From positions 2,110,541 to 2,174,540 of the forward strand of contig ML992502.1 in NCBI GenBank assembly GCA_010093995.1: 64,000 nt of DNA, written 5' to 3'. Below are positions 2,791 through 52,456 of the stretch, piece after piece (within the stretch, counting starts at the first letter, position 1; every line of letters starts with the position of its first letter). The notes under the pieces are model-generated. The model did no database searches. It was given only the letters and a program-made list of their open reading frames with translations, and was not told where the DNA came from. Position numbers and translations under genes: made by a program. The DNA is from Elsinoe ampelina (Eukaryota).

Positions 2791-2861
2791 CTATAGCGCT
2801 TATGTTATAAGTGTTATTAATATAGTATAGTAAGAAGGTAAAAGTATTATATAAAAGAAAA

Positions 2862-6000: not shown

Positions 6001-6199
6001 TAGCAATATAAAGGCATACTAGATAGTTGTTTAAATGTTCCTAAGGAGAGAAAGAAGTAACTTAGCTAATAATCTACTTATATCCCTTAGTATAACAATA
6101 GCTATTATTTAATAATAGCTATTGTTAGTATTGTTGTTTTTTTATAATAGACAATAGCTATTGTCTATATTGTCGTTCTTATAATAGGTAACGCTAGAT

Positions 6200-7489: not shown

Positions 7490-7534
7490 TAACTAGATAC
7501 GCTTAGAATACTAGCCTCTAACCTTAGTAACGTT

Positions 7535-11929: not shown

Positions 11930-12511
11930 ATAGCTTATAAGAAGCAAGTAACACCTCTAAAAAGGGTAAAGCTAAGGAAGTAAGGCGCTAAGAAAACTGC
12001 TACTAAAAAGCCTACTATAGGTAGTTACGTAACAAAATTTAGACTAGTATTAACTAGATAAATTTGCTAGGTAAAGAGCTATAGGTTTAAGCTAGACAGT
12101 TAGTTTCTTATAGTAAATTCTTATAGTCTTATATCTAATATAGTATAGCTATTACTCTCTAAGAGATTTGTCGCTACTAGAAGACAACTAAACTTCTTAT
12201 ATATAAGCTTCTCTTCTCCTATGTTGTTTATAACATTACGTAAGATATTAAGTTAACACTTATAAGTAGAGATTTACGCTTTACACTAGATGCTATTAAG
12301 TATCTCTAGAAAGTAAGTAAGGTAATACTAGTAGAATATTTTAAAGGTATATTAACTATGTATTTAGAATATATAATACCTTATACTAATAACTATAGTA
12401 GACTATAATCTTAATACTATCTATGCTAAGTATTATACTATTATATAGAAAGACTCTTAGCTTACTAAGAAATATTATAACAAGTACTACTTACTTACTT
12501 TCTCTAATTAG
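11930..12511 (+). pseudogene. Histone H3-like (CenH3-like features) gene, RIP-inactivated, 2-3 introns
   Basis: De-RIP: MARKKQV..PKR.KPRKQGAKKTA.KKP / VK.HRFKPG / [36 protein letters not shown](+5 aa)DLRFTPDAIE.LQEASEA.LVEYFE / D.NL.AIHAKR.TIMQKDSQLA. Colinear with the H3 histone fold. GT..AG introns at ~12099-12148 and ~12348-12401. Confidence 0.9.
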
Positions 12512-15233
12512 TAAGACCTCTCCTCTATAATACTATAAGAATAGACTATAAGAAATAGGCAGGTTTATTTTTACATAGACTAGACTATTAAATTTCCTTT
12601 CTATAGACTTATTACAATACTAAAGTATAGTATAGTAGCTATAGTTACCTTAAAGCCTAACTAAGGCGTAGTACTATAACGTAGTATAATACTAGGATTT
12701 AACTCCGGTACTAATTTAGTATAGTGCTATTATAGTGTAGTATAGCGCTATTATAGTATAGTACTATTCTTACTTAACTACGGTGTAGTACTAGTGCTAG
12801 TGTAGCTCGGCGTAGTACTAGTACTAGTGCTAATATAGTAGAGTGTAGAGCTAGTGCTATTTAGTTTAGTACCGGGTGCTAACCTACTAAGAACAGCTTT
12901 ACACTAGTACTAGGGTCGGCCTTTAGCCGCCCTAACCCCGCCCTAATAGTTACACTAACGTCGATAGCCTAAGTTACTATAATAGAAGCTTCTAGCGCCT
13001 CTCTTCTATTAGCTAGAGTTAATATATATAGTATAAAGCTGCTATCGAAGGCTAATTTAAGGCTAAGTAGACGATAATTATATACTATAACTTAGTCCTT
13101 CTATCTGTTCTTCTTGTTTATTAGCTTAAATAGGTTCTTAATAAACTTAATATAGTTATACTTAGCATAATTAGAATCGAGGTTTAGGGCTACACTAAAG
13201 CGTTAGATAGCTTACACGAAATGCGTTATAGCGTGCTACTTTAGGAAGTTAAAATAATCTACTTTGTCTCTAGTTTAACTACGATATAGATAGTAAATTT
13301 CCTTATATTTATTTAGATAGAAAAGGGCGAGATCTATATACCTTAGCGTGTCTTTATTATAGCTCTTATACATTACAAGTAGTATAAAGTCTACTAATGC
13401 CCTTAGATAATATATAGCTTTCTCTATACATATCTTAGCTAGGAGAGGAATAAATACTAGTAGAAGTTAACGGAGTAAGCTTTTTTACTCCTTTCTAGTC
13501 TATTGCTTAACAGTAGAGAAGTAGCTAAACCTCCGTAGGCCTAGATACGCTAGAATGCCTATAAAACGGCGATTAATAATATTAAGCACACGTTCGGTAG
13601 AGAAGCGCTTATGTCTAGTAATCCTAGCCTACTCCGTAGCTGCCTTAAAGTAGCGTATTTCTAGGGTAGGTATTCTGTCCTATAGTATTAAGGTTGTCTA
13701 TCCGACGACGTATATAAGTACGCCCTTTAAGAGCTAATAGAGGATATCTAGCACTATAGCCTCGTAGATGTTAGTCTACTTATAGCCCTATACGAAGTAA
13801 TCGACATTATATACTAAATCTACACTTGCTATTACGCTCTATTACTATATTTAGATTTGCCTCCGCGTTAATATATAAGTATATAGCTCTACTCTCGCCT
13901 TAAGGTCTTCCCTTAGTTCTAGCTTAATTAGGCAAGTCGTACAATAGTAAAGAGACTTAACGCTAGTAATCTTAACCTACTCGGTATAATCTGTTATAAT
14001 AGCTACTATAATTAGGAAATATCTTCTAGTACTACTGTCCGAATAGACAATATTAACACCTTTACCTCTAACAATTTGCTTAATCGGATCGAAGATTCTC
14101 TTTATATACTTATAATAAACAGTTGCCTTCTATATTATATCGCTATTCTTTATAATAGGTAAGAGCCTTACTAGAAGCTAGCTAGGCTAGGTATTTCTAT
14201 TATAGATATATAAAGGCACATTTCCGATAGAAAGGTAGATAGTATAAGTAGTAAGGTCTCCTTAATAATTAGTTACCTAAGTTTAATCGCTTACGAGGAT
14301 AAGTAGTATAATAGTAGCACTATTAATATTTATACGCTCTTAAGCTTCCTACTACTAGTCTCCTAAAGCTAGGTTATTAAAAATTCACCTAGAGAATTTG
14401 TCTTCTACTACCTCTATAAACGTTTAAAACAGGCTATATACTATATCGTCCTTAAAGCTATAGTGCTAAAGAAAGAATTATATTATATCTATTACATTTA
14501 TATAGTAGAGAGTATAGCCTATAGCTCCTCGATTTATAGGTAGTTAGAATAAAGTCTTTATCTATGCTTCTATCTCCGAATAGTTATCTAATTTGTCTAT
14601 TTAACTACGAAGTTTGTCTAATATCTTAAAACTAAGCTAATCGGTTAAAGGCTAAATATATAAGTTATATAGGAGATAGGTAATAGTATTCTTACTAATC
14701 TTCTCTTCGAAGAGCTATTAAGTAAACATAGTATCTATTTCGTTTCTAAAAACATAGCTATAGTCTAGATCGTCTACGAACTAGACATCTATCTTAGCGG
14801 ACCTAGTCCTATAAGGGATTAGTGTTAGGAGTGTTTATATATGCTCTTTATAGTGCTACCTATACTTATAGTGCCTCCTCTACTCTTTAACTAGTGGCCT
14901 TCTCGTACGTCTATATAAAGTAGACTAACCTTCCTAAAGAAGATAGCTAACTCTTCCTTATTAAGTTCGCTAATAAAATAGAAAGGGCAAAGGCCGAGAT
15001 ATGCCCTTCTATCTCCTTCTTTTTCTCTCTTACGTAGTTCTCTCTGTCGATGCTATACTAGGGGCTAATAGTAGCCTTATCTACACGTGTAAAGCCTCTA
15101 TCTACTTTAGCGTTGCTCTTATTATTAAGGTAGACACCTAGATAGAGAGAGTCTTATACTACTCTTTCTTTACTTTGTTTATCTATGCCTTCTATCTATA
15201 TACCTTCTTCGCTATTTAAAGATATCTCCTCCT

Positions 15234-18200
15234 TAATTACGACTAGTAAGACAAGAGGTTAATTACGTCTATTTATTAAGATATCGAGACTTAGAAGAAG
15301 AGGAAGAAAAACTAGTATATAAAGCATACGTAATATCGAGAGCAAAGCGGCCGGAAGCCTAGGCTACGATACTAAGATTACATAACTAATCTAAACTAGA
15401 TTCTAACTAAATCTAGTTCGTATCTATCTCGTATTACTACTTCCCCTCTTAAGCGTATTTACTCTTAAACGCTATTATATATTATCTATTAATTTATTTC
15501 GGCCTTAGCTTATCTATATAAGAGTTTAGATAGTTATATAGCACGTCGGCTACTCCTTTAAGGTTGTTAATTAGCTACTAGGTAAGATCCTTTAGATAAC
15601 TCTTCTAGCTTATATAAGTAACTAGCTTCTCTCGTAGTAAATATATATTAATTATGTTATTTACCTTATACTTCTCTTTACTATTAACCTCTATCGGAGG
15701 TAGTTCTTTAAAGGCTTAGCCCGGCAAGGCGTTATTTAGGTGCTTAGTAAGCAGGTCGGTATAAACCACTAGGTAGATCCTTTATAGAGAGGCTAGTAAA
15801 TCGAGCTTATATACTAGCAGTAATTGTTTCTTAAGAATCTTACAGGGACTAATATGCTTTAGTAGTAGCTTTAGATTGCCCTATAGCTAGAGGTTCTTCG
15901 TTAATAGCTAAACTAAATCGCTAGTCTCGAACTCTATTAGCTAGCGGTGCTTATTAGCTTATTCTACTATCCGTAACTAGGTAATAGCAAGGTTAGCCTT
16001 AGTAATAGCTAGTGCCTCCTCTAGTTACTTAGTAAGTGCGTAGATGTCTACCTTATTTAGCTTAGCTCTTGTTAATAGCGCGTTAAAAGAGAGCTAGAAG
16101 CTTAGCCTCGGCTTGTATTCTCTAGTAACCTCGAATAGCGATAGCTTAGTACTCTCTAATAGATTAACGTTAGCGGAGAATTCTGCTACTAGTAGAACAA
16201 GTGTCTAATTACTAAAACGTGTAGCATACGAACGAATAACTCGCTCGAACTTACGATTTATAACCTCTAATTAGCTGTCTATTTATAGATACTCTATAGT
16301 AGATAGTTTAGTAGTAATCTTTAGGATTTAGTAGAGCCTCTTCTATACGTCGCTAACGAACTAAGGGCCGCAGTCCGAGGTAATACTATCTAGTAGACTA
16401 TATAGTTTCTACACGTAGAAGAATAATAGCTTAGTAGTCTTAAACGCTAAAGTGCTACCTTCTCCGGAGAAGTATAGAATTAAGTACTATTCCTTAGATA
16501 GGTAGTCGACGACATAGAGCACTACGTTATAGCCGTCTACTAGAGGTAGACTAGTAATAAAGTCTATAGTAATATATTACTATAGTCTTACTAGAATAGG
16601 TAATAGCGATAGGAGGCTAGCTAGTAAGCTATAGCGAGCCTTTAAGCACTTATAGTTATAACAGTTAGCGACGAACCTCTTAACGTTGCTATTGTATCTA
16701 AGGATATAGAAAGTAGACTTAATTATAGTAGCCATTTTAGTAGCTCCTCTATGTGTATAATTCTTTAATGTATAGACTTCTTAGATAACCTTTGCGGCTA
16801 TAGAGAAAGACACGATTAGTTAGCTATCGGCCTATAGTATTCTCTTTTTAATTGTAACATTAGTTAATAGTAACTATTTCCTCTTTAGGAAGGCTTCTAT
16901 TATATAGTAGATGCTACGAACTAACTTAAAGTTAGAGTCTCGCAAGTTAGCTCTAGCTACTTTATCGAATAGTAGTAAAGGTAGCTCTTCTAAGGCTAAG
17001 ATAGGTACTACGTAGATGCCTAGCTCGCGAGCTAAAATAGGCAGCGAAATAGGAGGTGAAATAGGCGGCGAACTAGTTTACGAACTAGATGCTAAACTAG
17101 ATCTTAGTTTAGCTTAAATTAGTAATTAAGTTTAGATACGACCTAGATTTAGTTCGTTAATAATGCGCTAATCTAGCACCTTGTATAGTAATAGCGTCTA
17201 GCGTAGATTAGAGTCTTCCTTCGAGCGTAGTACGTCTCTATTCCTTCTTATAAGTGTGTCGGCCTTACTATTAGCGGCGCTAGGCCTATATATAATCTTA
17301 AAGTTGAATTATGCAAGGTAGAGGGCCTAGCACACTTAGCGGCGTAATAGTTTCTAAGTCTTTATAAAGTGTATTAAGGATTAGTAGTTAGTAAGAACGT
17401 AAATAGCCTTATTAGATTAAGTACTTATAAGCTCGAGAGTCTACTCCTTAAAGGCTTAGACGATAGCTAGTAGTTCCTTGTCGTAGATAGTATAGTTACG
17501 TTCGGCTTTATTTATAGATTTACTAAAAAAGGTAATAGGCTAAAGAATGTTAGACTTGTTATATTATAATAGTTATATTATAATAGAATTCCGGCGGTAG
17601 TAGTGTCGAAGGCGTCTATCTTAAGAACTATCTATTTCGAGCAATCGAAGTGCGCAAGGATAGGCGCGCTTATAATAGTGTACTTTATACAATTAAACGT
17701 AGTAGTACACTTATCGTTCTATAGTATAGTGTCCTTCTTAAGTAGATTGTTTAGCGGCTTAGCGATAGTACTAAATCCCTTAATAAAGCGACGATAGTAG
17801 CTATAGAAGCTAATAAAGCTCCTTACCTAAGTAGTATTACTAGGGGCTAGCTGTTTCTACGCTTATATAGCTTCTACCTTCTTAGGATCTATCTTAACTC
17901 TATCTCGGCTAACGATAATACCGAGGTACTTTACCTCTATTAGGTAGAACTTGCTCTTCTTAATATTAGCGTTTAGGCCTAATTCGTAGAGCCTCTAGAG
18001 TACTAACTTAATATGCTCGGCATGTTCTTAGTAAGAGCTATTAGTGTAGATAAGAATGTTATTAAGATAGATTAACACGAAGCGCTCTAGTATATCGATA
18101 AAGTTGTAATTTATAAACCTCTACTATATAGTAGAGGCGTTAGTAAGGCCGAATAGTATTACTAGCTACTTGAAATTTCCTATGCATATAAAGAACATAG

Positions 18201-21200
18201 TAAGGTCCTTACTATCGATAGAGTTATAGAGGTAGTAGAAGACTTAGCGAATGTTAATCTTGCTAAACTACTTAGCTTTACTTACGCGTATAAGTGTTTC
18301 TTCGATAAGGGGTAGTAGATAGATGTCTCGCTTAGTTACCTTATTAAGGCTATAGTAATTAACGTAAAGATAGAGACTACTACCTAGCTTATAAACAAAG
18401 AGAATAGGCAAGGAATAGCTAGCTGAGCTTAGCGTAATAAAGCCTTTATTAAGGTACTTACGGATAAATAGCTCTACTATATTAAGCTCCTCTAGTAATA
18501 GGTAGCGAAGGAGTTTAGTGCGTAGTAGTTTAGCTCTATCCTTAAGTGTAATTCAATTGTCAAAATCTAGCCGATGTAGAGGGAGCATGTTAGATTACTC
18601 TTTAGAAAAGACATTAGTAAACTCTCGTAGCTTCTCTAGGAGAACTACTATAGAGTCTAGTTTTAGCTTAGAGGCTATCCGGCAGTAGTCCTTAATATTC
18701 TTTACTAAGATTATAAACACCTTATTCTTTTAGTATTTAGCTACTAATATAAAGGCAGTAGCGCTAATAAAAGCAATAGTCGGCTCTTCTTACTTAGTAT
18801 TACTTACGTAGGCAAGTATATAGAAGAACTTATACATTAACTAAGTACTATAGGAGATTAGCTTAAACTCTCTCTAATTTAGCTTAAAGTTCGACCTAAG
18901 AGCTAGTAGTCGATATAGTCTAGTTCGTCCTAACTTAGTAGCTAAGCTAGAGCCTAGTTTATAAGTTAAACTAGAACTAAACTAGTTCTAAACTAGAGTA
19001 GCAGCTTTGCCGAGTTAGATTCCTAGATCTAAGCTAGGCTTAGACCTAGATCCTAGCCTTTTAATTAGCTATAGTAGCTCCTACTTAATAACGACTAGTG
19101 AAAACTCTTCTTTGTACGTAACTTAGCCGTGCTTATAGTCGATAGTAGCTCTATTAGCCTTAAGCTAGCTAAGGCCGAGAATAATGTTAAAACAGCTAAT
19201 ATCTATAATATAGAAGGTAGTAAGAGCGTTTAGCTTGCTAGAGACAGTAGTAGTAAGAGAAACACTATAAGTAACTTACTCTATTAGAACACTATTATAA
19301 GCCTAAAGCTAAATAGAGCTAGCTAACGCTATAGGGTAGCTAAAGCTCTTTAGCTTATTAAGGACGTTATAATTGACTACGGCGCTAATAAGCGCGCTAG
19401 TGTTAATAAAGGCTTAGAGCGTAATAGTATAAGAGCAGTTATAAGAGTCGTAAATAGTAATAGGAGTTATAATAGCGGGGATATAGTAGCTAACGACGCT
19501 ATTTAGTAACTATATACCTCCGGATCTATCTCGAATTACTCTTATTCCGCTAGAGAATAAGACTTGTTCTCTAGCTACTTATTTCTCTAGTTAGAGAGGT
19601 TAGCAGACTTATAGTCCACTTCGGGTTTAAACTAAGGCTAAACTAGATCTAGTTTGTAAGCCGAACTAGTGTCGACTTAGTTGCTTAATTTAGCTAAGCG
19701 ATTCTAGAGCTGTTATATCTCTTCTATAGCACTAATACGTATAGGGCATATAGTAGCGTAAGTAGCCTTCTTTAAGGCGCTAGCTATACACTTAGTAGAG
19801 ATATAGCCGGGCTTACCGCATCTATAACAGGTAAGTGCCTAAGTTAGATAGAAGAGCTATAGAGCTCCTCTAGTAATAGAGTAGAAGGTAGCTAGAGCGG
19901 CAGGTATAGAGGTAGAATAAGACATACAAATTAGTGCTATAGTAGTGTAGCTTATAGCTAGCCTAGCGTATAGAGCTTAAGTACGCTTAGTAATAAGGTT
20001 ACTCTACTAAATGTTATAGTTAGTAGTATAAGCCTTCGCGATAAAGGTAGAGAGGTTATTAGTGTCGAAGTTAATAAGAGTAACACGTAGCTTATTAGAT
20101 ATTTTCTAGTATAGCTAATAGAGCTATTTATCCTTAGCGATCTTAGCATAGAGAGCATACTTATTAAATTCGCTAATAAAGGAGTTAAAAGAGGTATTAC
20201 GCTAGAAGAGGCTAGTAAACTAAGCGCGTATAGTAGCCTTATAGTTTAAATCCTTAAAGCGCTAGGCTAAGAGACTAAAAGCAGCTTTAATATTAAGAGT
20301 GTCGTTACTAGCGAAGTCTATAATAAGAGTATATACTTCGCTAGAGAGACGCGAATAGAGATAGGTAAACTAAGTAGCCTTAGTAAGGAAATAGTTAGTG
20401 TTAGCGCGTATCTTATTCTTTATCTAGTACTTAAAAACCTTAAACTGTTCTAGAGTACTACTAGAGAAGATAGTAGAGTCTAGTATCTTCTCTAATAATA
20501 TAACGCTATATATAGAAGAGGCTAGTATAGCGCGTTCTATCTTAGCTCTTAGCTAAGCTAGTTCGGTTTTAAGTTTACTAATATTAGCGAGATAGTACGC
20601 AGCCTAGGTAGTAAGATTATTAGTAGTACTATTAGCTATATCTAGTTTAATAAGGACGTTATTTAACTAGTTATATAGATTAAGAGTATTAGTATATACT
20701 AAGTTACACGTAGTAACCTATTTATTGTAGGTAGACTTAATAAAGGTAAAGGCCTTACGTAGAGTAGTTATACTATCTATCTCTTATAGCCTCTTCTTAA
20801 GGTTAGTATTGCTAAGGCGAATAAGGTTATAATAGGCCGATTAGACTAGTTCGTTATTATTATTAGTAGGGAGTAGAGGAATCTTACTTACGTAGTAATT
20901 GTCTTTACTATAGTTAGAACGAGCTATACTTAGCATAGTTAGTCGTAAATAAATAGTGTAAAAAGTTAACGCGTAACAAAGAGAATATTAAAAATTTTAG
21001 CTAGTAGTCTACTTCCTTTAAGAGTTATCTATAACTTAACTTATTACCTTCTTCTTATATCTTCGAGGTTTATAGTATTAACCTATATAGTAGCAGCGAG
21101 GATCTATTATAGTGTACGCGGGAACTATAGTTGTAATAGCTTCTTTTTTAATTCTTTAATTCTTTATAAGTAGTAGTTATTAGTAGTTACGTAAGTAGTA

Positions 21201-21466
21201 GAATAACTAGATAATTTAATAGCTCCGTCGCTTAGTTATAGTCGTTTCGAAGTCTCGATATAGTAATTATAACTAGTAAGACAAGAGGTTAATTACGTCT
21301 ATTCGTTAAGATATTAAGACTTAGAAGAAGAGGAAGAAAAACTAGTATATAAAGCACGTGTAATATCGAGAGTAGAGTAGCTAGAAGCCTAGGCTACGAT
21401 ACTAAGATTATATAACTAATCTAAACTAGATCCTAACTAAATCTAGTTCGTATCTATCTCGTATTA
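15234..21466 (-). mobile_element. Gypsy family A, copy A2 (6233 bp, full length, RIP-mutated)
   Basis: LTRs 15234-15436 and 21264-21466. TSD CTCCT at 15229-15233 and 21467-21471. Gag CCHC knuckle, protease, RT, RNase H, integrase and chromodomain remnants on the minus strand. Confidence 0.95.
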
Positions 21467-22063
21467 CTCCTTCTCTGTCTAATATATCTATAGTATTTGT
21501 CTTATACATTAGTTAGATAGTTTAGTATATATATTACTAGCGTTAATATAAGGATACCTTAGCCTAGCCTAAGCTAGTATAGAAGATTAGAAGGAGAGTC
21601 GAGGTAGTCTTAAAGTAGATAAGAGAGAGAGTAGAATATCTAGCTACCGCTACTATAAGAGTAGCTTAGTTAGTATAGCTAGAGTAGAGTTAGAGAAGTT
21701 TCTAATACTAGATTTTTCCGTGCTATAGCTTTAGAGTTATTAAAGTATCTTTCGCTTATGTCGATAGTAGTAGAGAAGGTGTCTATAGTATCTAGATAGA
21801 GTTATATATCTCTTTCTATATGCTTTATATTTACTAGTTACTACTATTATAGTTCGTTCTTGTCGTAAAGAAGAGAAGAGAAAAGTAGTAGGTTTTATAG
21901 TATTTATCTCTAACTTCTACTTCGAGCTAGTTTAGCGTTAGTTAGCACCTAGGAGTAATCTACTTCGTTATACATGTAAATAATCTAATCCGAAAGAGGC
22001 GAGTAAGATACCTTACTACTATAATAAAATCTATTCTCTTAGTGTATACTATACTAATCTTAA

Positions 22064-25000
22064 TTAATCTCGATAGGCACTACGCTCTTTAAGTACTACT
22101 CTTAACTCTGCTTTACTTTCTTAAATATCTTCTCTACTAACCTATAATAAGAATTTATCTATTTATAGACGTTATAGAAGAGGAATATCGAGATAAGTAT
22201 AAAGGCCTTAGTAGTAGTACTTTTCTAAGACTCTACGTTTCTATAGACATAGCTAAGACATTATATAATTTAGCGCCTAAGATACATCGTGTCTAGACTA
22301 ATTATAGCGTTAAATCGTAAGAGGTTAAGGCTAGTCTTAATATATGCTCCTTAGGCAACTAATACCTTTAATTCTTCTTTCTTGTCTATTGCTATATTAA
22401 CTATCTCGCTATACTTTTGTTAATTACTAACTCTACTTAACACAAGATAGATATTATAGTTGTTAAAGTAAATAAGCTTAGCCTCTTTACTCTCTTAGTA
22501 CTAGGTAATATACTATATTAGTTAGTTAAAGCTATAAGGGCTAAAGAGGTATAGGGACTTACTATATATACTAGTATAACTATTATTAGCTTCTAGCTAA
22601 AGACTACTACTTGCCTCTTAATCTTCTTATTATACTTAGTATTTTAGTTAGTTATAGCTACTAGAATTACTACTAATACTTTTATCTAGAGGCTTTTATA
22701 GAACTTATATATATACTACTAGAGAGTACTATTCTTTTCGGCTTTATATAGAGTATTAGCGTGCCTTATATTTATATTGCTAATCTCTTTCTTAACCTCG
22801 GGGTGTTTATTATAGATATCTATTAGAGCAAGGAACATAGATAGTACTATAAGCTTATTAACTATGTCTAGGAAGGATATAGCTTTAGCTAGGCTCTTAA
22901 AGACCTTAACAATGTTAATCTCCTCCTTGTCTACTATTCTCTCTTCTCTCTTAAGGCGCCTCTTATTAATCTTGTCCTTCTAGGCCTTTCTAATCTTGTC
23001 GAAGTAGTTCTTATAGGCGTAGCTAAGATTCTTGTCGTACTTAAAGTCGATTTAGATCTTAAGGTTATATATTGTATATAGAGGGACACTTATAGTAGAT
23101 AATTCTAGTGCTTCCTTAAATAGTAACTATACGTGTCTAGCGCCGACTATTAGGATAACCTCCGCTAGTACCTTGCCCTATTCTTAGTATAGCTAGTAAG
23201 TCTCCTTATCTATATCCTTCTTAGTCTTAGAATTATAGTTGTTAGCGAAAGAGAGTATAGACTAGAAGTTGTTAATGTTTCTTACCTATAACCTAATATG
23301 TATAAAGTTAAGCTTGTTTAGAATACTCTTTCTCTATGTCGGAGTACCTTCCTTAGGCACTATAGCTAGGTTGTCGGCTTAGTGTTTAGAGTTCTAATCT
23401 ATAGCCTATACGTAGCTCTTCGTAGGCTCTACTACTTTCTCTCCTTTATTGTTAACCTTATATAGATTATAGTACTAATACGTAGCATAAATAAAGCTAG
23501 CTACAATGTTTAAGTATCTAGCTACTAGTATACTACTTATATATAACAGGAGAGAATTGTTATAGAGGTAGGCTAACTTCTACTATACTAGCGCGTTATA
23601 AGATATAATAGAATAAAATTCGTTAAAGACAATAATTAAAGCTACAAGTTATATCTATAAAGAGGTGTTATTAACTTTATATTTTCTTAACTAATTCTCC
23701 TCGAAGATAATGTATATTAGACAGTAGCGAATAGTTCTAAGTATAATAAAGATATACTAGTTATTTAGCTATTTACCTCGAGGGAAGTTAGATTTAGAGT
23801 TAAGAAGTCTCTTAGTAGTAATAGTAGCCTTCGGGGTACTATCCTTGTTCTTTAGCTAATAATACTACTTATAGTAGCTCTCCGGCAAGTTATACTCTAT
23901 AATAGTCTTGTTTAGACTATAAGTATAGTTACTAAACATCTAAGTAATCTTTAATATACTTATTAAGCCCTAAGCTATAATAGTCTTCTTCCTCTCTACC
24001 TATATAAACTTAAATAGCTTAAGCACCTACTACGTAAGTGTATTAGACTAGGTAATTATAAGGTTTAGTCCGAACCTTCTTAGGTCTAAGGTAGAATATC
24101 TTAGCTCCGGTACTAGAGTTATTACTTTACTATATACCTCTTATATCTCTAGGAATAGCTTCTTAACTTCTTAAGTCTCTTTAAGGTTACTAAGTATATT
24201 AGCTCTTTCTATAGTTAATACTAAAGCTATTACTGTCTTACTAAGACCTATCTCGTAAGCAAAGACAATAATACTATATCCTTTAAGGTCTTACTTTAAG
24301 GTATAAGTAATAGAATATATCTAGAGAGGGAGGATTAAGTATCTCTAATTCTAGCTAGTAAAGATAACTCTAATAGTTAGTAGATCTACGTCTAGCTTAT
24401 AGCTAAAGAACTTATAGGTGTAGTTCTATAGCTCTTTACTATACTAATCTAGGACTTAACTTTTAAGGATAAAGCTTTACTAGTCTAGAGCTAGTTCGTT
24501 ACTATTTAGTTTTATAACGTCGGAGCTAGTAAGGAACTAGTTAACCTTATATGTTATAATAGTTAGTAGTATAGAAACTCTTAGTGTCTCTCTTATAGTA
24601 GTCCCTTTTATTATTATTTTCTCTAGTAATAGCTAGACTATGTATAGATACTTCTCCTTATCTGCTTTTTGTATTTCGATTTATTCGGGCATAATAAGAA
24701 CATCTACTAGGATGTTTATAATGTTAGTAATGTCTTTGTCTTTAGCCTCTTTCTCCTCTATATCTTTTAGCTCTTCTATACCTATAGTCTTTATAGTTTT
24801 AATAACTCCTATCTACTCTGTAGTTTTAATATCTACTTTAGGAATTATAATATCTACTTCGAGTTCTATATCGTGTTTAACCTTAGGTTAGGTTAGTAAA
24901 AGCAATAGCTACTTAATATCTAGAGAGAGCTAAAATTTATTATCTAGAGGAATATAAAATTCTTTATAGTACTTACGGATATTAACTATTAATATTAATA

Positions 25001-25330
25001 TAGAAATGTATAACGCTAAGTATACTTATAGAGGACATCGAGTAGTACTTATTTAACAATAGTAATGTCCGTATAGATAATAAAGAATATATCGAATATA
25101 CCGACAGGGACGTAAGATGCTAGACCTAAGATAGTAGCGTCTATATCGTATGTGTCTTTAATAAGTATTATATCGAATAGTTCGTTAAAGTCTACGTAAA
25201 ATAGTTTATTATTCTCTTTGCTAAAATTCTAACCTTTAGCTAGCGTCGACTTTAGAGCCTCTAAGCTATACTAGTAATGTCTAGATAATAAGTCTAGTTC
25301 TTTAACTAGTATCGACTATGCCTTAATTAT
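22064..25330 (-). pseudogene. SNF2-family (SF2) helicase/ATPase, cargo of the Plavaka-like element (RIP-degenerate)
   Basis: De-RIP motifs in order: I, FAHEMGLGKT (~24263-24233); II, IVFDEFH (~23633-23612); III, SGTP (~23540-23528); V, GLNL (~22334-22322); VI, QCLGRVHR (~22267-22243). Acidic low-complexity N-terminal part. 5' end uncertain. Confidence 0.78.
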
Positions 25331-26257
25331 ACTTAGACCTCTAGGTTAAACTTTAAAGACCCTTATAACTATAATATTAATATTACTAACAAGTTTATTA
25401 AAGGTAAGTAGCTAATAGAGGTAATTAACTTACTACTAGTATTTATAATTATAGTCGCCTACGCTTATATTTATACCTAATAGTATAGTATATAAGGAGT
25501 TTAGAAAGGAGTATTAAGAATTATTATTATTAGCCGAAGTTCTAGAGGTACGTCTATATCCTAGAGGCTAGGAGTGTTACTAGTAGTTATAGTCTTCTTC
25601 TCTCCTAAGATCTCGCTACTTAGTATTCTTTACCTATAGAATAAATTTCTATATAGCGTATTTGTTATTAAAGCTATTAACTCTACTTAGGGCGTATTCT
25701 TAGAACTAGGTACAATTATAGCAGCTAGGACAATTAACAAAGAGATTTTTGCTTAGTCTAGTAATAAGCTTCTACTCGAGCTAAACTCTAACTATCTTCT
25801 TCTAGGAGTTCTTATTAATGTCTTTTAAGGGATCGAAGCTTAGCTCTCTATATATATTACACTATATAGTTCCGGTATGCTTTATTACCTTCTTAAAGTT
25901 ATCTATAGACTAGTTAAAGATGTTAGTAAAGCATCCTTTAGTTAGTAGTAAACCCTTTACTAGGTATATATTAATTTTGTCTATAGTCTATTCCTTAGCT
26001 AGCTTTTTACTAAAGTTATTAGAATAAGAATTTAATGCTATAATTATATAAGCTTACGCCGTAGGTAAATCTCACAACGGCTATAGTTAAATAATAGATA
26101 AACAGCTAGTATACTTAATTATATATATATTTAAGAGGTATTCTTATAAAAAGCAAAAGTAGAGTAGAAGGTTAAAGATAATAAATAGTAACTAGTAAAC
26201 AAAGAAGATATACTTAGGAGGTTATATAGCGGACTATATGTTATAAGGTCTTTAATT

Positions 26258-26691
26258 TAGGGTGGTTAAGTAGGTAATTACTATACTCTAAAGAGTATAG
26301 TAATTACAATATAACTTTTCGTAAAATTTTCGTGTTTTTTGATATTTTAACGTGCATTAGTAAGCGTATTTTACTGATAAAGATATTTTGTCTATACTAT
26401 TAGAAATTTTGCATTTTTAAGTACTATTTTTGCTTATGTAATCTTAGATCCTGATTTTTAGTAGTGATTTCAAATTTCTTTCTTCTTCTAAAAATCAGGA
26501 TCTAGGATTACGTAAGCGAAAGTAGTACCAAAAAATGTAGATTTTTTTATAGTATAGAAAAAATACTTTAGATTATAAAAGAAGCTTACTAATACACGTA
26601 AAAACATCAAAAAACACGAAAATTTCACGAAAAGTTACATTGTAATTACTATACTCTAAAGAGTATAGTAATTACCCACTCGACCACCCTA
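26258..26691. mobile_element. Foldback MITE-like element (434 bp; ~200-bp inverted arms, ~28-bp spacer)
   Basis: TAGGGTGGTTAAGTAGGTAATTAC... at the left mirrors ...GTAATTACCCACTCGACCACCCTA at the right. Arms pair to ~26460/26489. Flanks GTCTTTAATT / GTCTTTATT look like an imperfect 9-10-bp TSD. Confidence 0.85.
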
Positions 26692-26879
26692 GTCTTTATT
26701 GTTTTAGGAGAAGAGCCGTAAGCGGTTAGAAAATCTATATAAAAGCTAGCTCGGCTACCGAAATAGATAGTGACCTACGTATAGCTATTAGCTATAAATT
26801 TAAAAGGTATATAATAGAATATATCTATTTTGTTATATAAAGTAGACAGTAAAGTAAGTATAGAGTAAGCGTCTAAGTT

Positions 26880-29800
26880 AAATCCAATTACTAAGGTAGT
26901 TAATGTAGTTATAATAGTAATAATAAGAGAGTTAAAGGAAGAATATAGAATTGCTAATAGCTTTATACTATAGTTCTCTACGCGTATAGAAAGGAGAAGC
27001 AGTAGCGATAGAAGCTAGGAGAGTAGTGTACTATAGATATACCACAGCTAGAGTGTAATTACGACCTAGCTTGCTCTATAGTTCTATCTAGATTTGAAGT
27101 AGATATAAAAGAGAATATAGAAAAGATAGACTATAACAATACGTAGTATTAGAAGATACTATATACTAGCTACGCTAAACCTTATAACATTTATTATATA
27201 TAGCAATATCTACTAGGCAGTATAAGCTCTATTACTACGGTATATAAGTACTAGTTAGAGTGTTAAGGTCGACTAGACAAAGAATAATATTTCTAGTCTA
27301 GGCAATTACTAGCTTAACTAGTATACTATCTATTATCTATAGCCTCTCCTCTCTACTATAGGTATACTAATCTATCGGCAGAGCATAGTATAGCTAGAGT
27401 AAGTATTCTATCCTACTTCTCCTAGCCCTTCGAGTTTACTATATTATATGCCTTCTAGTCTATATATATTTATTCTCCTATCTGCCTCTTTCTAGAAAGT
27501 GTAGGCCTATCTAGACGAAGGTTAAGTAGAAGTAAATAACAAAGTAGGCGTTAAGCTATTAAACTAGACAGCCTCGTAGTAATATAAATAAGAGTAAGTA
27601 AATAACTTTTATAAGTTTCTTTTATTAGGTATAACCTTTTACTTAATATTAGAGAATAGCAATAATAAGTAATAGTTTAGGTAATAATAGAGCCTTAATA
27701 GATAGTAGACAAACAATTAAGGCAGGATATAATTATAAATTAGCTAAGTCTAATTAACATTATACTTACTTTATAACTCTACCTTCGCTATAAATCCGTT
27801 TACTTTACCCTTATACTCTCTAGTAGCTATTATTGGCTATAGACATGCCGAGTAAGATTAAGCTACGTAGTACTCTCTTACTACTCTAAATAATTCTACT
27901 ACTTTCTCCTTAGCTTTAATAGTAGCTATAACAACTCTATTCTATCGAGATAATTAAAGACAACCTAGGCCTAGACGACCGAAAGTATAAGAAGATATAT
28001 AGCTTAATTAAGACTATTATATCTTAAAAGAGAATTATCGGAAAGACATTTAGATCTATATTAAACAAGGCATAGATTAAAAGGGAAATAATCTTATTAG
28101 TACTTAATATATGCCTTATAAAGATAAAGTTTCGTAGCACTACTAGTTATATAGAGATAGACAATAGGCAAGTAGTATTCTAAGCGCTTATATATAAGAT
28201 AAGCACGAACTTTCGACATAGATAGTAGTAATAGTACTATTATAGCAACTAGCACGACATCTCTTTCGTCCCCTACTATAGTAGAACTAGCGATATATTA
28301 AAGGCTGTCTCTTCTAAAGGCTTATATTCGCTACTAAGATCCCTCGAAGATTAACTTAATAAAATATTACTCGTGACATAGAAAGATAGAGAAATATACC
28401 TTGTCTACTCGCTATAAGATATTATAGAATATATATTATCTAGAATTAACACTAATAGCACCTTTAATCTAGACTAGCGAGTATTCTCCTTAATACTTTT
28501 AGATAACTATTTTTTCGATTGTTAGGAAGATAGATTAGGCTAGGAGAACAAGTAAACGCTCGAATTTGCCGTCATTAAGAATGCTATATAGCTTAAGGTA
28601 GTTATTCTATCGAAGTAGTTATATAACTAGCCTTTACTTATCTATATTAAAGCTAAGAGCGATAAACATTAAAAGCCGCTATAGACAAGGTATATTTATT
28701 AAAGACATAGAAGAGCGAGATAACTATATATATAACATTACTATAGCTAAACTAGATCGATTCTATCTAGTTTGCCTTTCTTAAACCTAGAATATCTTAA
28801 CCTACTAAGAGCTTGTTAACTTCTACACTATCTAGCTCTATATAGAAGCTATAGTTATAGCTACCTTCTACTCTTTGCTCCTATTACTATTATAGTCTAA
28901 GTTATATTTTAACTGCTCCTTTACGTCCTTAGCTACGCTCTTAAGAGAGTTAAAGGTGTAGTGTCTACTACTAATAGTATAGTCTATCTTGTTATTTAGA
29001 GCAATAAAGTCCTTTATACTAATACCTCTAGATCTAGAAACGTCGCTTAGGCTTCTATACTCTCGGTACTATATTCTTAGCTACTCTAAAATCATGCCGA
29101 GATTAGTTAGACCTTACTTCTTAAGGTACTCTTTAGTAGCTTTAAAATGTATCTTCTAGTGCTACTACTAGTAATCCTCCTATCTATTACTAGGACTTAC
29201 ATCCGGATAACGTTGTTTAGGACCTGCCCTTTATACTTGCTATAACTTAAGGTAAACTAAGATTACTAGGCGTTAAAGAAGCTATGTCTTATACCTCCCT
29301 TACTAACCCGGCTATCCCTCTTAAGGTTACTAACAATAGAGTTATTAAGATTATTAATGTACATCTACTCTATCTACTACTAAGTGTCTACTAATATAAT
29401 ATAATAGTAGTTCCGTTTAAGTGTACTAAGTAGCAAATTCTTACTACTATTAGTTACAATACTTGTGTCGTTTATTAGCTATAGAATAAACCTTTCTATG
29501 CTATTTATATTATTATACACTACATTACTAAAAAGACTAACGAGGCTTTTGTTAAAGTAGATAGTAAGGGGCTACCTTACGCTAAGGCAGATAAACATCT
29601 AGAGATTTTTTAGTATTTACTTTGGTATCTACTTTAGCTATCTAGTTCGTACACCTCCCTAGAAACTAGACAAACTAAACTAGGTCCCTAATACATATTA
29701 CTAAGCTAAACACCTAACTCTATATATAGTTTTCTTATATATCTATTAAATTCCTATACTTATAAAGGTTTAGTATAATAGGCTAGACTTTATAAATTAC

Positions 29801-30157
29801 TTATCTACCTCGATTTATATATATAAGGATAGACGTAGTTCCTAATAACGTTTAGTATATACCTCTTTCTAATTCTATAAGCCCTTATCTAGGTTAGCTA
29901 GGATATATCTTGCTTTTTCTAGACAAAGAGAAGAGTAACTAGGGTAGCTATCTCCCCTTTCTAGCCTCTAACCCCTCGCCTATATAGGATAGTACTAATA
30001 AGACAGGTTACTAATATAGGGATATAGCTCCTCCTAAGTTCTCTAGCGTTATCGAGGCTATTTAGGTACACGAGGAACTACTATAAAGCCTTATATAGAG
30101 GCTTATTAACTTAGAATAGCGCCTGTATATCGTAGTAGAGAGTAGCACTTATTACTC
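26880..30157. pseudogene. Several unidentified RIP-degenerate gene-like segments inside the Plavaka-like element
   Basis: Protein-like de-RIP readings with starts ATGCCGAGT (~27845) and ATGCCGAGA (~29094) on +, and a minus-strand segment cut by Gypsy A3. No family recognised. Confidence 0.35.
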
Positions 30158-30162
30158 CGAAG

Positions 30163-33100
30163 TGATATAAGATAGATACGAACTAGATTTAGTTAGGATC
30201 TAGTTTAGATTAGTTACGTAATCTCGGTATTATAGCCTAGGCTTCCGGCCGCTTTGCTCTCGATATTATATATGCTTTATATACTAGCTTTTCTTCTTCT
30301 TCTTCTAAGTCTTAATATCTTAACGAATAGACGTAATTAACCTCTTATCTTACTAGTTGTAATTACTATATCGAGACTTTATAACGACCGTAACTAAGCG
30401 ATAGAGCTATTAAATTATCTAGTTATTCTACTACTTATATAACTACTAATAACTATCACTTACGAAGAATTAAAGAATTAAAGAAGAAGCTATTATAACT
30501 ATAGTTCCCGCGTATACTATAATAGATCCTTACTACTACTATATAGGTTAATACCGCGAACCTCGAAGATATAAGAAAAAGATAATAAGTCGAGTTATAG
30601 ATAACTCTTAAAGGAAGTAAGCTACTAGCTAAAAATTTTAATATTCCCTTTATTACGTATTAACGTTTTACACTGTTTTATTTACAACTAACTACGCTAA
30701 GTATAGCTCGATCTAACTATAGCGACGAAGAGCGCTACTAAAGTAAGCTACCTTAACCTATTTCTAATAATAATAACGCTCCTATCTACTCTCTCTACTA
30801 TAATCTTTTTACCCTCTCTAACGCTATACTCCTTAAGAAGCTATAGGAAGAGCATAGTATATAGGCACTAAGAGACGTATTTAACTATATTAAGTCCTTC
30901 TATAATAAGTAGACTACGTAGGTAAAAGGCACTTATACTAACGCTCTCTACTATTACTATAAGTTAGATACTACTTAGGCCTAGCTCGGCAACCTCTAAT
31001 CCGAACTAGACGTATCTTAGTCCTATGCCGATAGTGTTACTACCTAAGCTACTCGCTACCTTGACAAAATCTAAGAGCTTAAGGCTAAGGTAAACTAACT
31101 AAAAAACGAGATAGGGCGTAGTATACTAGCCCTTTCTATACGCGGCTTTACCTTATTAGAAAAGATACTAGACCTTGCCGTCTTTAGCATAGGTACACTA
31201 GAGTAGTTCGAGGTCTTTAAGCACTAGATAAGGAACAAAATACGCGCTAATATAGATCGTTTCTCTATAAGAGATACCTAGTTTACCTATCTATACTTAC
31301 GTCTCTCTAGAGAAGCCTATACCCTTGTTATAGACTTAGCTAGTAATAACGTTATTAGCGTCGAAGAGGTCCTTACTCTCCTAGCCTAGCGCTTCGAGGA
31401 TTCTAACTATAGAGCTACTATACGTACTTAGTTCGCTAACCTCTTTTAGTATAATAGTACATTTAACTCCTTTATTAGCAAGTTTAATAAGTATGCCCTT
31501 TACGCTAAGATTGCTAAAGAGGAGTAGCTATACTAGATCTACTAGAAGATATTTAATAAGCTACGTAATACTCTAGTTAACTATAACACTAACAACCTTA
31601 CTACTTTTATTACTAAGGCCTACGCTACTAACTATAATATCCAATAGAATAACCTTATTACTAAGCGCACTTAGGCTTTACGTTCTATGCTAGCTATAAG
31701 CTACGCCGCTACTATACCTACTTATATATCTTATTCTACCTTTACGCCTATAGCTCCGCCTACCTTTCGCTCTATTACTAGAGGTACTCCGTAGCCTTTC
31801 TATCTAGCTCTAGTACTTACCTATTATATATGTGGTAAGCCTAGACATATCTCTACTAAGTGTATAGCTAGCGCCTTAGAGAAGGCTACTTACGCCGCTA
31901 TACGCCTTATACGTATTAGCGCTATAGAGGAGATATAGTAGCTTTAGGATTACTTAGCCGAATTAAGTAACTAGGTCGACACTAGTTCGGCCTACGAACT
32001 AGATCTAGTTTAGCCTTAGTTTAACCCCGAAATAGACTACGAGTCTACTAGCTACTCTAGCTAAAGAAACAAGTAGCTAGAGAACAAGTTCTATTCTCTA
32101 GCGGAATAAGAGTAATTCGAGATAGATCCGGAGGTATATAGTTACTAAATAGCGTCGTTAGCTACTACATCCCTGCTATTATAACTCCTATTACTATTTA
32201 CGACCCTTATAACTACTCTTATACTATTACACTTTAAGCCTTTATTAACACTAGCGCGCTTATTAGCGCTATAGTTAATTATAACGTTCTTAATAAGCTA
32301 AAGAGCTTCGGCTACCTCGTAGTACTAGCTAGCTCTATTTAGCTTTAAGCCTATAATAGTGTTTTAATAGAGCAAGTTATATATAGTATTCCCCTTACTA
32401 CTACTGTTTCTAGTAAGCTAAATAACCTTACTACCTTTCGTATTATAGATATTAGCTAATTCGATATTATTCTTGGCCTTAGCTAGCTTAAGGCTAATAG
32501 AGCCACTATCGACTATAAGTATATCTAAGTTACGTACAAAGAAGAGTTTTTACTAGTCGTTATTAAGTAGGAGCTGCTATAGCTAATTAAAAGGCTAGAA
32601 TCTAGATCTAAGCCTAGCTTAGATCTAGAAATCTAGCTCGGCAAAATCCCTGTTCTAGTTTAGAACTAGTTCGGTTCTAGTTTAGCTTACTAACTAAATT
32701 CTAGCTTAGCTACTAAGTTAGGACAAACTAGACTATATCGGCTACTAGCTCTTAGGTTAAACTTTAAGCTAAATTAGAGAGAGTTTAAGCTAATCTCCTA
32801 TAGCACTTAGTTAATACATAAGTTCTCCTATATACCTACTTACGTAAGTAATACTAAACAAGAAAAGCCGACTATCGCCTTTATTAGCGTAGCTGCCTTT
32901 ATATTAGTAGCTAAATACTAAAAGAATAAGGTGTTTATAATCTTAGTAAAGAATATTAAAGACTACTACTAGATAGCTTCTAAGCTAGAACTAGATTCTA
33001 TAGTAGTTCTCCTAGAGGAGTTATAGAAGTTTACTAACGTCTTCTCTAAAGAATAATCTAATACGCTCCCTTAGCATCGGCTAGATTTTAACAACTATAT

Positions 33101-36100
33101 TACACTTAAAGATAGCGCTAAGCTACTACGTATAGAGCCTTTACGCTACCTATCGCTAGAAGAACTTAATATAGTAGAACAATTTATCTAAGAATATCTT
33201 AATAAAGGCTTTATTATACTAAGTTCCGCTAGCTATTCCTTACCTATTCTCTTTATTTATAAGCTAGGTAGAGAACTCTATCTCTACGTTAACTACTATA
33301 GCCTTAATAAGGTAACTAAGCGAGATGTCTATCCTCTACCCCTTATTAAAGAAACACTTACGCGCGTAAGTAAGGCTAAATAGTTTAGTAAGATTAACAT
33401 CTATTAAGTCTTCTACTATCTCTATAACTCTATTAACAGTAAAGATCTTACTATGTTCTCTATATATATAGGTAACTTTAAGTAGCTAGTAATACTATTC
33501 GGCCTTACTAATACCTCTATAGTCTAGTAGAGGTTTATAAATTACAACTTTGTTAATATACTAGAGCGCTTTATATCGATCTACCTAGATAATATTCTTA
33601 TTTATATAAACGGCTTCTACTAAGAGCACGCTAAGTATATTAAGCTAGTACTCTAGAGGCTCTACGAATTAGGCCTAAACGCTAATATTAAGAAGAGTAA
33701 GTTCTACCTAACAGAGGTAAAGTATCTTAGTATTATTATTAGCTAAGATAGAGTTAAAATAGATCTAAAGAAGATAGAAGCTATATAAGCCTAGAAATAG
33801 CTAGCTTCTAGTAACACTACTTAGGTAAGAAGCTTTATTAGTTTCTATAGCTACTATCACTACTTTATTAAGGGATTTAGCACTATTACTAAGCTGTTAA
33901 ACGACCTACTTAAGAAGGATACTACGCTATAGAACGACAAATACACTGCTACTTTTAACTATATAAAGTACACTATTATAAGTGTGTCTATCCTTACGTA
34001 TTTCGATTGCTTAAAGTAGATAGTCCTCGAGACTAACGCTTCTAATACTACTACTACGGGAATTCTATTATAATATAATAAGTCTAATATTCTCTAGCCT
34101 ATTACCTTTTTTAGTAAGTCTATAAACAAAGCTAAGCGTAACTATGCTATCTACGACAAGGAGCTACTAGCTATTATCTAAGCCTTTAAAGAGTAGGCCT
34201 CTAAGCTTATAAGCACTTAATCTAATAAGGCTATTTACGTCCTTACTAACTACTAATCCTTAATACACTTTATAAAGACTTAGAAGCTATTACGCTACTA
34301 AGTATACTAGGCTCTCTACCTTACGTAGTTTAACTTTAAAATTATATATAGGCCTAGCGTAGCTAATAGCAAAGCCGACGCCCTTATAAGGAGAAATAGA
34401 GATATACTACGCTCGAAGGAGAACTCTAACTTACGCTAGACGCTATTACTATATAAAGTGCTCAATTAGTGTATTATTAACGAACTAAATCTAGGCTATA
34501 TCTAAACTAGATTTGTAACTTAAGCTAAACTAAGAACTAGTTCGTTATCTAGTTTACTACCTATACTACTATCTAGTTTAGCTTCCGAACTAGGACCTAG
34601 TTTAGGAACTAGTTCGCCGCCTATTTCGGCTTACGAGCTAAGCACCTATATAGCACCTATTTCGACCTTAGGAGAGTAAACTTTACTATTGTTTAACGAA
34701 GTAGCTAAAGCTAACTTATAAGACTCTAACTTTGAAATAGTTCGCGGCATCTACTATATAATAGGGGCCTTCCTAAAGAGGAAATAGCTACTATTAACTA
34801 ATGTTACAATCGAGAAGGAAATACTATAGGCCGATAGCTAATTAATCGTGCCTTTCTCTATAGCTATAAAAGTTATCTAAGAGGTTTACACATTAAAAGA
34901 CTATATGTATAAGGGAGCTACTAAGACGTCTACTATAATTAAAACTACCTTCTATATTTCTAGATATAATAGTAACATAAAGAGGTTTATCGCTAACTAC
35001 TATAACTATAAATAGTCAAAGGCTCGCTATAGTCTACTAGCTAGTCTCCTCTCTCTATTACCTATTCCGGTAAGACTATAGTAATATATTACTATAGACT
35101 TTGTTACTAGTCTGCCCTTAGTAGATAGTTACAACGTAGTGCTCTATGTCGTTAACTACCTATCTAAGAAACAGCACTTAATCCTATACTTCTCTAGAGA
35201 AGGTAGCACTTTAGCGTTTAAGACTGCTAAGCTATTATTCTTCTACTTGTAGAAACTATATAGTCTACTAGATAGTATCACCTCGGATTATAGCTCTTAG
35301 TTCGTTAGTAACGTATAAAAGAGGCTCTACTAAATCTTAAAGATTACTACTAAACTGTCTACTATAGGGCATCTATAAATAGACAGCTAATTAGAGGTTA
35401 TAAATTGTAAGTTTAAGCGAGTTATTCGTTCGTACGCTATACACTTTAGCAATTAGACACTTGTTCTACTAGTTATAGAATTCTCCGCTAATGTTAATCT
35501 ATTAGAGAGTACTAAGTTGTTACTATTTAAGGTTACTAGAGAGTATAAGCTAAGGCTAAGCTTCTAGCTCTCTTCTAACGCACCGTTAACAAGAGCTAAG
35601 CTAAATAAGGTCGACATCCGCGTACTTACTAAGCAACTAGAAGAGGCACTAGCTATTACTAAGGCTAACCTTGCTATTACGTAGTTACGGATAGTAAAAT
35701 AAGCTAATAAGCACCGCTAGCTAATAGAGTTCAAGGCTAGCGATTTAGTTTAGCTATCGACGAAGAACCTCTAGCTATAAGGCAATCTAAAGCTACTACT
35801 AAAGCATGTTAGTCCCTATAAGATCCTTAAGAAACAATTACTACTAGTATATAAGCTTAATTTACTAGCCTCTCTATAAAGGATTTACTTAGTGTTTTAC
35901 GCTAACCTACTTACTAAATACCCGAATAACCCCTTACTAGGCTAAGCCTTTAAAGAACTACCTCCGATAGAGGTCGATAGTAAAGAGAAGTATAAGGTAG
36001 ACGATATAATTAATATACACTTACTATAAGGAAAGCTAGTTACTTATATAAGCTAGAAAGGCTATCCGGAGAATCTTACCTAGTAGCTAATTAACAATCT

Positions 36101-36427
36101 TAAAGGAGTAGCTAATATGCTACGTAACTATCTAGACTCTTATATAGATAAGCTAAGACCGAAATAGATTAATAAATAATGTATAATAGCGTTTAAGGGC
36201 AAATACGCTTAAGAGAGAAAGTAGTAATATAAGATAGATACGAACTAGATTTAGTTAGGATCTAGTTTAGATTAGTTACGTAATCTTAGTATCGTAGCCT
36301 AGGCTTCCGGCTGCTCTACCCTTAATATTACGCGTGCTTTGTATATTAGCTTTTCTTCTTCTTCTTCTAAGTCTTAATATCTTAACGAATAGACATAATT
36401 AACCTCTTGTCTTACTAGTCGTAATTA
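30163..36427 (+). mobile_element. Gypsy family A, copy A3 (6265 bp, full length, RIP-mutated)
   Basis: LTRs 30163-30365 and 36225-36427. TSD CGAAG at 30158-30162 and 36428-36432. CGKPGHISTKC knuckle (~31831-31863), AFIDTGA protease (~32238), IYLDDIL RT (~33579), GHPQTDGQSE integrase (~35367), YEVDDI..WKGY..TW chromodomain (~35990-36085), PPT before the 3' LTR. Confidence 0.95.
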
Positions 36428-36432
36428 CGAAG

Positions 36433-52363: not shown

Positions 52364-52456
52364 GATGAAGTGAGCACCGGCCTTGGCATTGACATCCCAC
52401 TTTACCGTCATTGCTCCGTCCCCACTTCAAGACATCAAGTTGCACACATAGCCACC

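Follow-up and report, generated by a model that had tools for sequence, protein, structure and literature searches.

A RIP-mutated SNF2-like ATPase gene relic beside a Plavaka transposase relic in Elsinoe ampelina, possibly two genes of one large DNA transposon

Two gene relics on one strand, split by a later retrotransposon

The window analyzed in this study is a stretch of 64,000 nucleotides (nt) of Elsinoe ampelina DNA (GCA_010093995.1, contig ML992502.1, positions 2,110,541-2,174,540 of the forward strand). Its subject is a decayed gene at 22064-25330 of the window, for which a prediction made from the sequence alone (the original prediction) had proposed an SNF2-type ATPase that a transposon carries as cargo beside its Plavaka-type transposase. 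The genes and insertions found at the locus are as follows, RIP standing for repeat-induced point mutation.

12713-15233, minus strand: relic of a Plavaka (EnSpm/CACTA-superfamily) DDE transposase gene (PF18759 match; stop-poor frame down to ~12713)
15234-21466, minus strand: Ty3/gypsy long terminal repeat (LTR) retrotransposon, a later insertion between the two genes (Pfam matches, LTRs, target duplication)
21472-22063, minus strand: 3′ end of the ATPase relic and spacer toward the transposase; adjoined 15233 before the gypsy insertion
22064-25330, minus strand: SNF2-like (DExH, superfamily 2) ATPase gene relic, RIP-inactivated (motifs, stop density, alignment with the protein P0002)
25331-30162, no strand assigned: older RIP-degraded DNA, continuous with the upstream side of the gene and repeated in the source sample (bounded by CGAAG at 30158-30162)
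30163-36427, plus strand: another copy of the gypsy element, in the opposite orientation (target duplication CGAAG, repeat pairs I1, I3 and I7)

The transposase relic was identified by its Pfam core at ~14525-13716 on the minus strand, where PF18759 matched with an E value of 1.1e-29 and 104.2 bits against a cut-off of 26.3 (covering positions 41-317 of the 325 in the profile, and residues 235-504 of the minus-strand translation of 12300-15227), and by this above-threshold match it belongs to Plavaka. Plavaka has been assigned to the EnSpm/CACTA superfamily (bioRxiv 10.1101/2025.02.11.637652; PMC12730594).

As predicted, the two relics share a strand, with the ATPase gene upstream of the transposase gene; the strand is the minus strand, and without the gypsy element only ~1.3 kb would separate the gene end at 22064 from the transposase core. 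The immediate adjacency that had been claimed holds for this ancestral arrangement, while at present the two genes are split by the insertion at 15234-21466. That insertion gave Pfam matches to RT_RNaseH (E 4.3e-10) and Integrase_H2C2 (E 2.6e-4), has LTRs of ~215 nt, and is bordered by an intact 5-bp target duplication, CTCCT, at 15229-15233 and 21467-21471. The same repeat (~6.3 kb; 6.2 kb in the left copy) recurs in inverted orientation on the other side of the stretch, where the second copy is bordered by CGAAG at 30158-30162 and 36428-36432. The 5-bp duplications on both copies indicate simple later insertions into a single older sequence, in which 12.3-15.2 kb ran on into 21.5-30.2 kb, and this into 36.4 kb onward.

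Positions 1-52000 of the window form an AT-rich block (23-38% GC), in each 2-kb bin of which TpA/ApT was 1.72-2.38 and (CpA+TpG)/(ApC+GpT) was 0.15-0.34, versus 0.62-0.96 and 1.07-1.40, respectively, in the GC-rich bins of 52001-62000. The block, the ATPase gene included, is strongly RIP-like, in agreement with the original prediction, and this signature points to a fungal host genome.

The ATPase frame, its motifs and its single relative

The gene frame contains 79 stops in 1088 codons, versus 142 in 1089 and 132 in 1088 in the other two minus frames, with a stop-poor stretch from ~25220 to ~22200, and no sign of a gene was found on the plus strand of 22064-25330. Motifs were scored in the six frames of 1-52000 (~104,000 positions), only the reversal of TpA to CpA or TpG being allowed, against general SNF2 consensus patterns rather than patterns taken from a library, a limit that applies to all SNF2 motif scores given here. 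The following motifs were found in the gene.

24234-24266, minus strand: motif I (Walker A), observed as VFAYEIGLSKT; 11/11 pattern positions with TpA reversal, unique among 103,936 positions
23613-23636, minus strand: motif II (DExH box), observed as IIVFNEFY; 8/8 with TpA reversal, unique among 103,954
23517-23546, minus strand: motif III-like, observed as LYISSILVAR; 7/9, an equal score at 9 of 103,942 positions
22590-22613, minus strand: motif IV-like, observed as QVVVFS*K; 6/8, not rare, 55 of 103,954 positions scoring as high

Motifs I, II and III stand in order in one and the same frame of 25330-22064 (P0001, the frame 1 translation of the minus strand of 21900-25400, stops written as X), rather than in different frames, and the divergent forms FAHEMGLGKT and DEFH, on which the gene had first been recognized, agree with the TpA-reverted forms of the observed motifs I and II. 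A further string, SYYNRLYRVG* at 13972-14004 on the minus strand, fitted 9 of the 10 positions of the SNF2 motif VI pattern with TpA reversal; as it falls within the Plavaka core and in a wrong frame, it is a chance look-alike, which illustrates how easily motif scans in RIP-mutated DNA mislead.

Searching P0001 with phmmer over 1.84 billion representative proteins returned a single match, P0002 (E 1.5e-4), an intact protein of 553 residues without RIP damage. BLASTP aligned the two colinearly over 369 residues (E 1e-8), with a second segment over motif I. In a RIP-aware Smith-Waterman alignment, in which a codon could also be read in its TpA-reverted forms, each reverted base costing 2, the score of P0002 on the gene frame was 282, against nulls of 51.4 ± 5.7 (100 codon shuffles), 56.4 ± 8.6 (100 query shuffles) and 50 (reversed query), and against 45 and 40 on the other two minus frames of the gene. 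The alignment spans residues 12-551 of P0002 and 24704-22563 of the window, with identical pairs at 117 of 526 places as observed and at most 199 of 526 with reversal, the latter being an upper bound because the best reversal option was picked at each codon. The counterparts in P0002 are GHDMGLGKT for motif I, VVVDEIH for motif II and IYMSGTYVEK (MSGTY) for motif III, and the motif IV-like stretch pairs with KVVVVAF, with which P0002 ends. The window gene is longer than P0002 by ~170 codons between motifs I and II, and these include a motif Ia-like LVPxxL. A profile built from P0001 and P0002 retrieved nothing at E ≤ 10, not even P0002, probably because low-complexity words defeated the search.

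Family assignment depended on the measure used. By the SNF2-rel_dom (PF00176) profile, neither P0001 nor P0002 counts as a member of the SNF2 family, while by the order of motifs I (xxDEMGLGKT type), II (DExH) and III (SGTP type) the gene does. The "SNF2-type ATPase" of the original prediction is retained as a divergent SNF2-like relic, on motifs I-III and P0002. Judged from these sequences, the locus holds a real relic of a superfamily 2 DExH ATPase gene that is SNF2-like in its first lobe, the second lobe being unverified.

An alternative is that the protein was no SNF2 remodeller at all, being instead a generic superfamily 2 helicase or ATPase with a DExH box, either ResIII/DEAD-like or viral in type, whose likeness to SNF2 proteins is confined to motif I. 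P0002 fits ResIII (E 0.0066, sub-threshold) better than SNF2-rel_dom (E 0.027); motifs V and VI were not found; several neighbors of P0002 in the protein atlas are viral clusters; and in the PDB its best row, which was non-significant (E 1.1), covers just motif I and comes from the small-subunit helicase of vaccinia VETF. Against this, the ten best family-bearing atlas clusters for P0002, with scores of up to 0.93, are all of the SNF2-rel_dom/ResIII family or of its clan (unnamed clusters reached 0.84-0.86 only), and an SNF2 helicase is named among the proteins of Entons, the fungal transposons discussed below. The usual SNF2 combination consists of G-L-G-K-T after an acidic pair, DExH and an SGT-type motif III, and this also counts against a generic helicase, which we regard as very improbable. 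P0002 also matched phrog_62, "DNA helicase", in PHROGs (E 2e-5), which speaks for an SNF2-like nature; in phage records it gave three rows at E 2, each from Aeromonas phage 65 or from 65.2, which is closely related; and P0001 gave two chance rows (E > 1) in a PDB sequence search.

Diverged copies of the gene region

Contigs of two public DNA runs of one sample (X1 and X2), which is possibly the source of the window itself, were mapped onto 21472-30160 at ≥80% likeness. On the gene, equal-length contigs came in pairs, one identical to the window and one diverged, the diverged ones including the following.

22611-22902: 22 differences in 292
23004-23406: 43 differences in 403
23499-23814: 27 differences in 316

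Transitions made up 652 of 676 differing places in X1 and 738 of 768 in X2. Differences of which nearly all are transitions indicate RIP-hit sister copies, and the gene belongs to a repeat, as had been predicted. The gene region is thus not confined to this copy: it is present in at least two diverged copies in the contigs of this one sample, the gene being single within the window.

The copies differ at the 3′ end of the gene. A 928-nt contig from another copy matches 21511-21681 and 22324-22519, with 561 unlike letters in place of the 642 nt at 21682-22323, so the 3′ end of the ATPase relic varies among copies, and this difference may explain why motifs V and VI were unreadable.

The contigs also bear on a second alternative, that of two different neighboring repeats, in which another, unrecognized mobile or repeated element, nested in the Plavaka relic or abutting it, contributed the ATPase gene. 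The block is a mosaic of nested elements; the summed contig depth was ~230-440 over the gene versus 590-940 at 26982-30160, a difference that is not interpretable, as summed contig depth is not copy number; and some contigs break at 25634/25673, which is equally uninterpretable. However, the ~1.3 kb of DNA between the two genes showed no break or duplication apart from the gypsy element with its clean target duplication, and a contig of another copy extends from the 3′ part of the ATPase gene to 21511, 40 nt short of the gypsy site. A side-by-side origin is accordingly regarded as distinctly unlikely, and the two genes would have lain within one mobile unit.

Borders, upstream DNA and surrounding repeats

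On the left, the transposase relic is bordered by hAT-like subterminal repeats from ~12.7 kb, and on the right the stretch is bordered by further nested repeats. The short repeated motifs GTAGTGCTATTA / TAGTATAGT flank the hAT element at 12600-12800 and 5250-5350. They begin where the stop-poor transposase frame ends (~12713), so the hAT element may have cut away the 3′ terminal part of the Plavaka element. Published Plavaka ends are TGT..ACA, CATCA..TGATG or CATAC terminal inverted repeats with a 2-3-bp target duplication, and as long as other copies are lacking, such 5-nt terminal motifs cannot be told apart from the background of RIP-mutated DNA, which is why the ends could not be located here.

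Upstream of the gene, diverged contigs also overlie 25331-30162. Pfam searches found no family in the three minus frames of 25331-30160 (E ≤ 10), nothing meaningful in its three plus frames (E ≤ 1) and no family in the three minus frames of 36433-39700, the sole row in these searches being a meaningless Integrase_Zn (E 0.26). At ~28410-28452 on the minus strand, VLILDNIYSIISY resembles the motif II region of the gene, LIIVFNEFYSIISY. The region may be a far more decayed tandem paralogue; the similarity was not significant (47 versus a null of 41 ± 3), its score with P0002, 60, stood at the 95th percentile, and the gene compared with 25401-30160 gave nothing significant in any frame or setting.

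The upstream DNA carries one small insertion.

26255-26698, no strand assigned: foldback insertion of 444 bp, resembling a miniature inverted-repeat transposable element (inverted arms; 7-nt direct repeat GTCTTTA)

Its arms, 26258-26464 and 26485-26691, are 84% complementary. A contig of another copy joins 26247 to 26692, skipping exactly the foldback, which is therefore a private later insertion at this locus. Summed contig depth over the foldback was 2,684-8,318, versus ~230-440 over the ATPase gene.

As a whole, 1-52000 is a mosaic of nested elements that include gypsy in two and a half copies, a further LTR element, the foldback and the hAT element. Within the third gypsy copy, direct repeats of at least 300 nt at 41769-42068 and 48321-48620 are 92% alike and 6,552 nt apart, and 41769-48620, in DNA of 23-29% GC, looks like another LTR element nested in that copy.

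Interpretation: probable standing genes of one transposon

Our preferred reading, to which we give a probability of roughly 55%, is that both genes were standing genes of one large, multi-copy DNA transposon of the EnSpm/Plavaka superfamily, of the kind called Entons, which was later invaded by gypsy and foldback elements and killed by RIP. Entons were presented by Kapitonov at a 2012 meeting as fungal DNA transposons derived from En/Spm that code for five or six conserved proteins, among them an SNF2 helicase; fungal "Intons" were described by him at the same meeting (PMC3520738). A literature search traced Entons and Intons only to this meeting report and one sentence, and found no further paper. 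This printed precedent suggests a standing gene of the element rather than a chance passenger.

Under this reading, the ATPase gene, which stood head-to-tail ~1.3 kb upstream of the Plavaka-type DDE transposase gene, would have belonged with it to a large transposon; a Ty3/gypsy element later inserted between the two genes, a second gypsy element and the small foldback inserted upstream, and RIP ruined the entire stretch. When the element was alive, the ATPase would have been made together with the transposase. The protein would have been a true SNF2 translocase, and its ATP-driven movement along double-stranded DNA may have cleared or shifted nucleosomes or bound proteins at the element ends or at targets, so that the transposase could assemble on the cleared DNA and cut and paste in chromatin. 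In a weaker variant, the ATPase might have acted against silencing.

A number of results weigh against this reading, some of them on the side of the ATPase. The original prediction had listed motifs I, II, III, V and VI in order, and only I-III stood: in the six frames of 1-52000, the best matches to the patterns of V and VI were at chance level, and a Helicase_C (PF00271) lobe was not found in the relic. For the raw P0001 translation, Pfam gave 0 families at E ≤ 10, and PHROGs, PADLOC and NCBIfam gave no match. RIP damage accounts for the Pfam failure of P0001, but not for the sub-threshold score of P0002, whose SNF2-rel_dom match had 14 bits under a cut-off of 24.9. In P0002, motifs I and II lie only ~50 residues apart, and the protein ends ahead of the C-lobe. 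It is also an orphan, the search for longer relatives finding none, that for near relatives only P0002 itself, and that in metagenome and viral contigs none. Its AlphaFold2 model was uninformative (mean predicted local distance difference test score 32.3). Escherichia coli RapA, a bona fide SNF2 protein, scored 64 on the gene against a null of 57 ± 8, which is not significant.

Others are on the side of the element. Its ends and target duplication were not found, the borders being read from the neighboring repeats only. A second copy of the gene was found in the window neither by self-comparison in the purine/pyrimidine alphabet nor by a scan of 246 window tiles with P0002 (282 at the locus, next best 73, median 45). 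Both DNA runs come from one sample, maybe the source of the window, so they speak for copy number only and not for spread. Only two genes are recognizable of the "five to six" of Entons, and the locus was likened to Entons by their published description.

A further alternative is that the ATPase gene was a passive passenger or belonged to a host cluster of genes that had been duplicated; a cellular gene without a role in transposition would then have been repeated, hit by RIP, and have come to lie beside, or been picked up by, a Plavaka element. Gene capture is known in this transposon group (TET/JBP, PAG1-3; see below), no element ends were found here, and a comparable repeat with helicase genes, X3X3R8 of Stagonospora (Parastagonospora) nodorum, was reported without a transposase and interpreted as a cluster of endogenous genes (Hane and Oliver, 2010; PMC3017866). 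However, the ATPase showed no detectable likeness to ordinary host SNF2 families (no Pfam family, a phmmer match only to the orphan P0002, and for P0002 itself only the weak SNF2-rel_dom match), its shared strand and close spacing with the transposase fit a co-expressed pair, and no Rad6-type HPN motif was detected in 1-52000. This explanation is therefore considered unlikely; in particular, "cargo", taken to mean a gene captured from the host, was not confirmed, the sole relative found, P0002, being itself far from host SNF2 families.

If a motor borne by the transposon is real, as the reading of two standing genes would have it, it would show how a transposon copes with chromatin, and the remodeller and transposase could serve as a compact pair to be studied. 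The usual view is that cut-and-paste transposons need the transposase alone. Dead copies like this one would place the Enton kind in RIP-active ascomycetes, and some published fungal "helicase gene cluster" repeats are suggested to be of the same kind. The present, non-functional copy contributes a locus and its anatomy rather than a mechanism.

Comparison with known systems

ATPase partners of bacterial transposases are TnsC of Tn7 and MuB of Mu, AAA+ proteins that work on naked bacterial DNA. They share with the present pair a DDE transposase and an element-encoded ATPase governing target use or complex assembly, but being AAA+ they are not of the SF2/SNF2 type, so that the likeness is an analogy and no homology is claimed. 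The protein list of Tn7 is given in PMC3627910.

Among Plavaka elements, accessory genes are on record: PlavakaB of Agaricomycetes carries TET/JBP (PMC12730594), and in red algae a giant Plavaka of 17-19 kb carries PAG1-3 (bioRxiv 10.1101/2025.02.11.637652). These resemble the Elsinoe locus in combining a PF18759 transposase with at least one chromatin- or DNA-related gene on an element of large size, whereas their extra genes are a dioxygenase, a methylase/SET protein and unknowns. By term search, an SNF2 or helicase borne by the element is described in neither source: PMC12730594 has no "SNF2" term and a lone "helicase" that concerns Helitrons; in the bioRxiv paper there is no "helicase" term, and the lone "SNF2" concerns host gene families. 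Plavaka in an ascomycete, the truffle, has already been published.

X3X3R8 of S. nodorum SN15 is a RIP-affected repeat of 26 kb in nine copies that carries three Rad5/SNF2-like helicase genes along with one Rad6-like and two unknown genes (PMC3017866). Like the present stretch, it is a RIP-affected, multi-copy ascomycete repeat with SNF2-like helicase and unknown genes, but its helicases were reported to be Rad5-like with strong hits to annotated genes, and its Rad6-like gene has no counterpart found here, the Rad6/UBC-type HPN motif occurring at 0 positions at ≥11/12 in the six frames of 1-52000. The combination of tandem SNF2-like helicase genes with a Rad6/UBC gene that marks an X3X3R8-type unit was not found at the Elsinoe locus. 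With six genes in 26 kb, the X3X3R8 unit would itself look Enton-like. A bolder reading, which we hold to be doubtful, is that a deeply divergent clade of SNF2-like ATPases occurs only on giant EnSpm/Plavaka-type ("Enton") fungal transposons as an obligatory partner of the transposase, a eukaryotic counterpart of MuB and TnsC suited to chromatin that would open nucleosomal DNA or select the targets of cut-and-paste transposition, and that X3X3R8 is such a transposon misread in 2010.

The closest system by description is that of the Entons. Like them, the locus is fungal and has an EnSpm/CACTA-superfamily transposase, in this case of Plavaka descent, as well as a gene for an SNF2-type helicase, and it shows signs of having been a large element with several genes; the Elsinoe copy differs in being dead and split by later insertions. 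By its RIP signature, its PF18759 match and the placement of Plavaka, the relic is a fungal DNA transposon descended from En/Spm. Taken together, the locus reads as a new, dead member of a known and barely documented kind of fungal transposon, assigned to the Entons on two features and by description.

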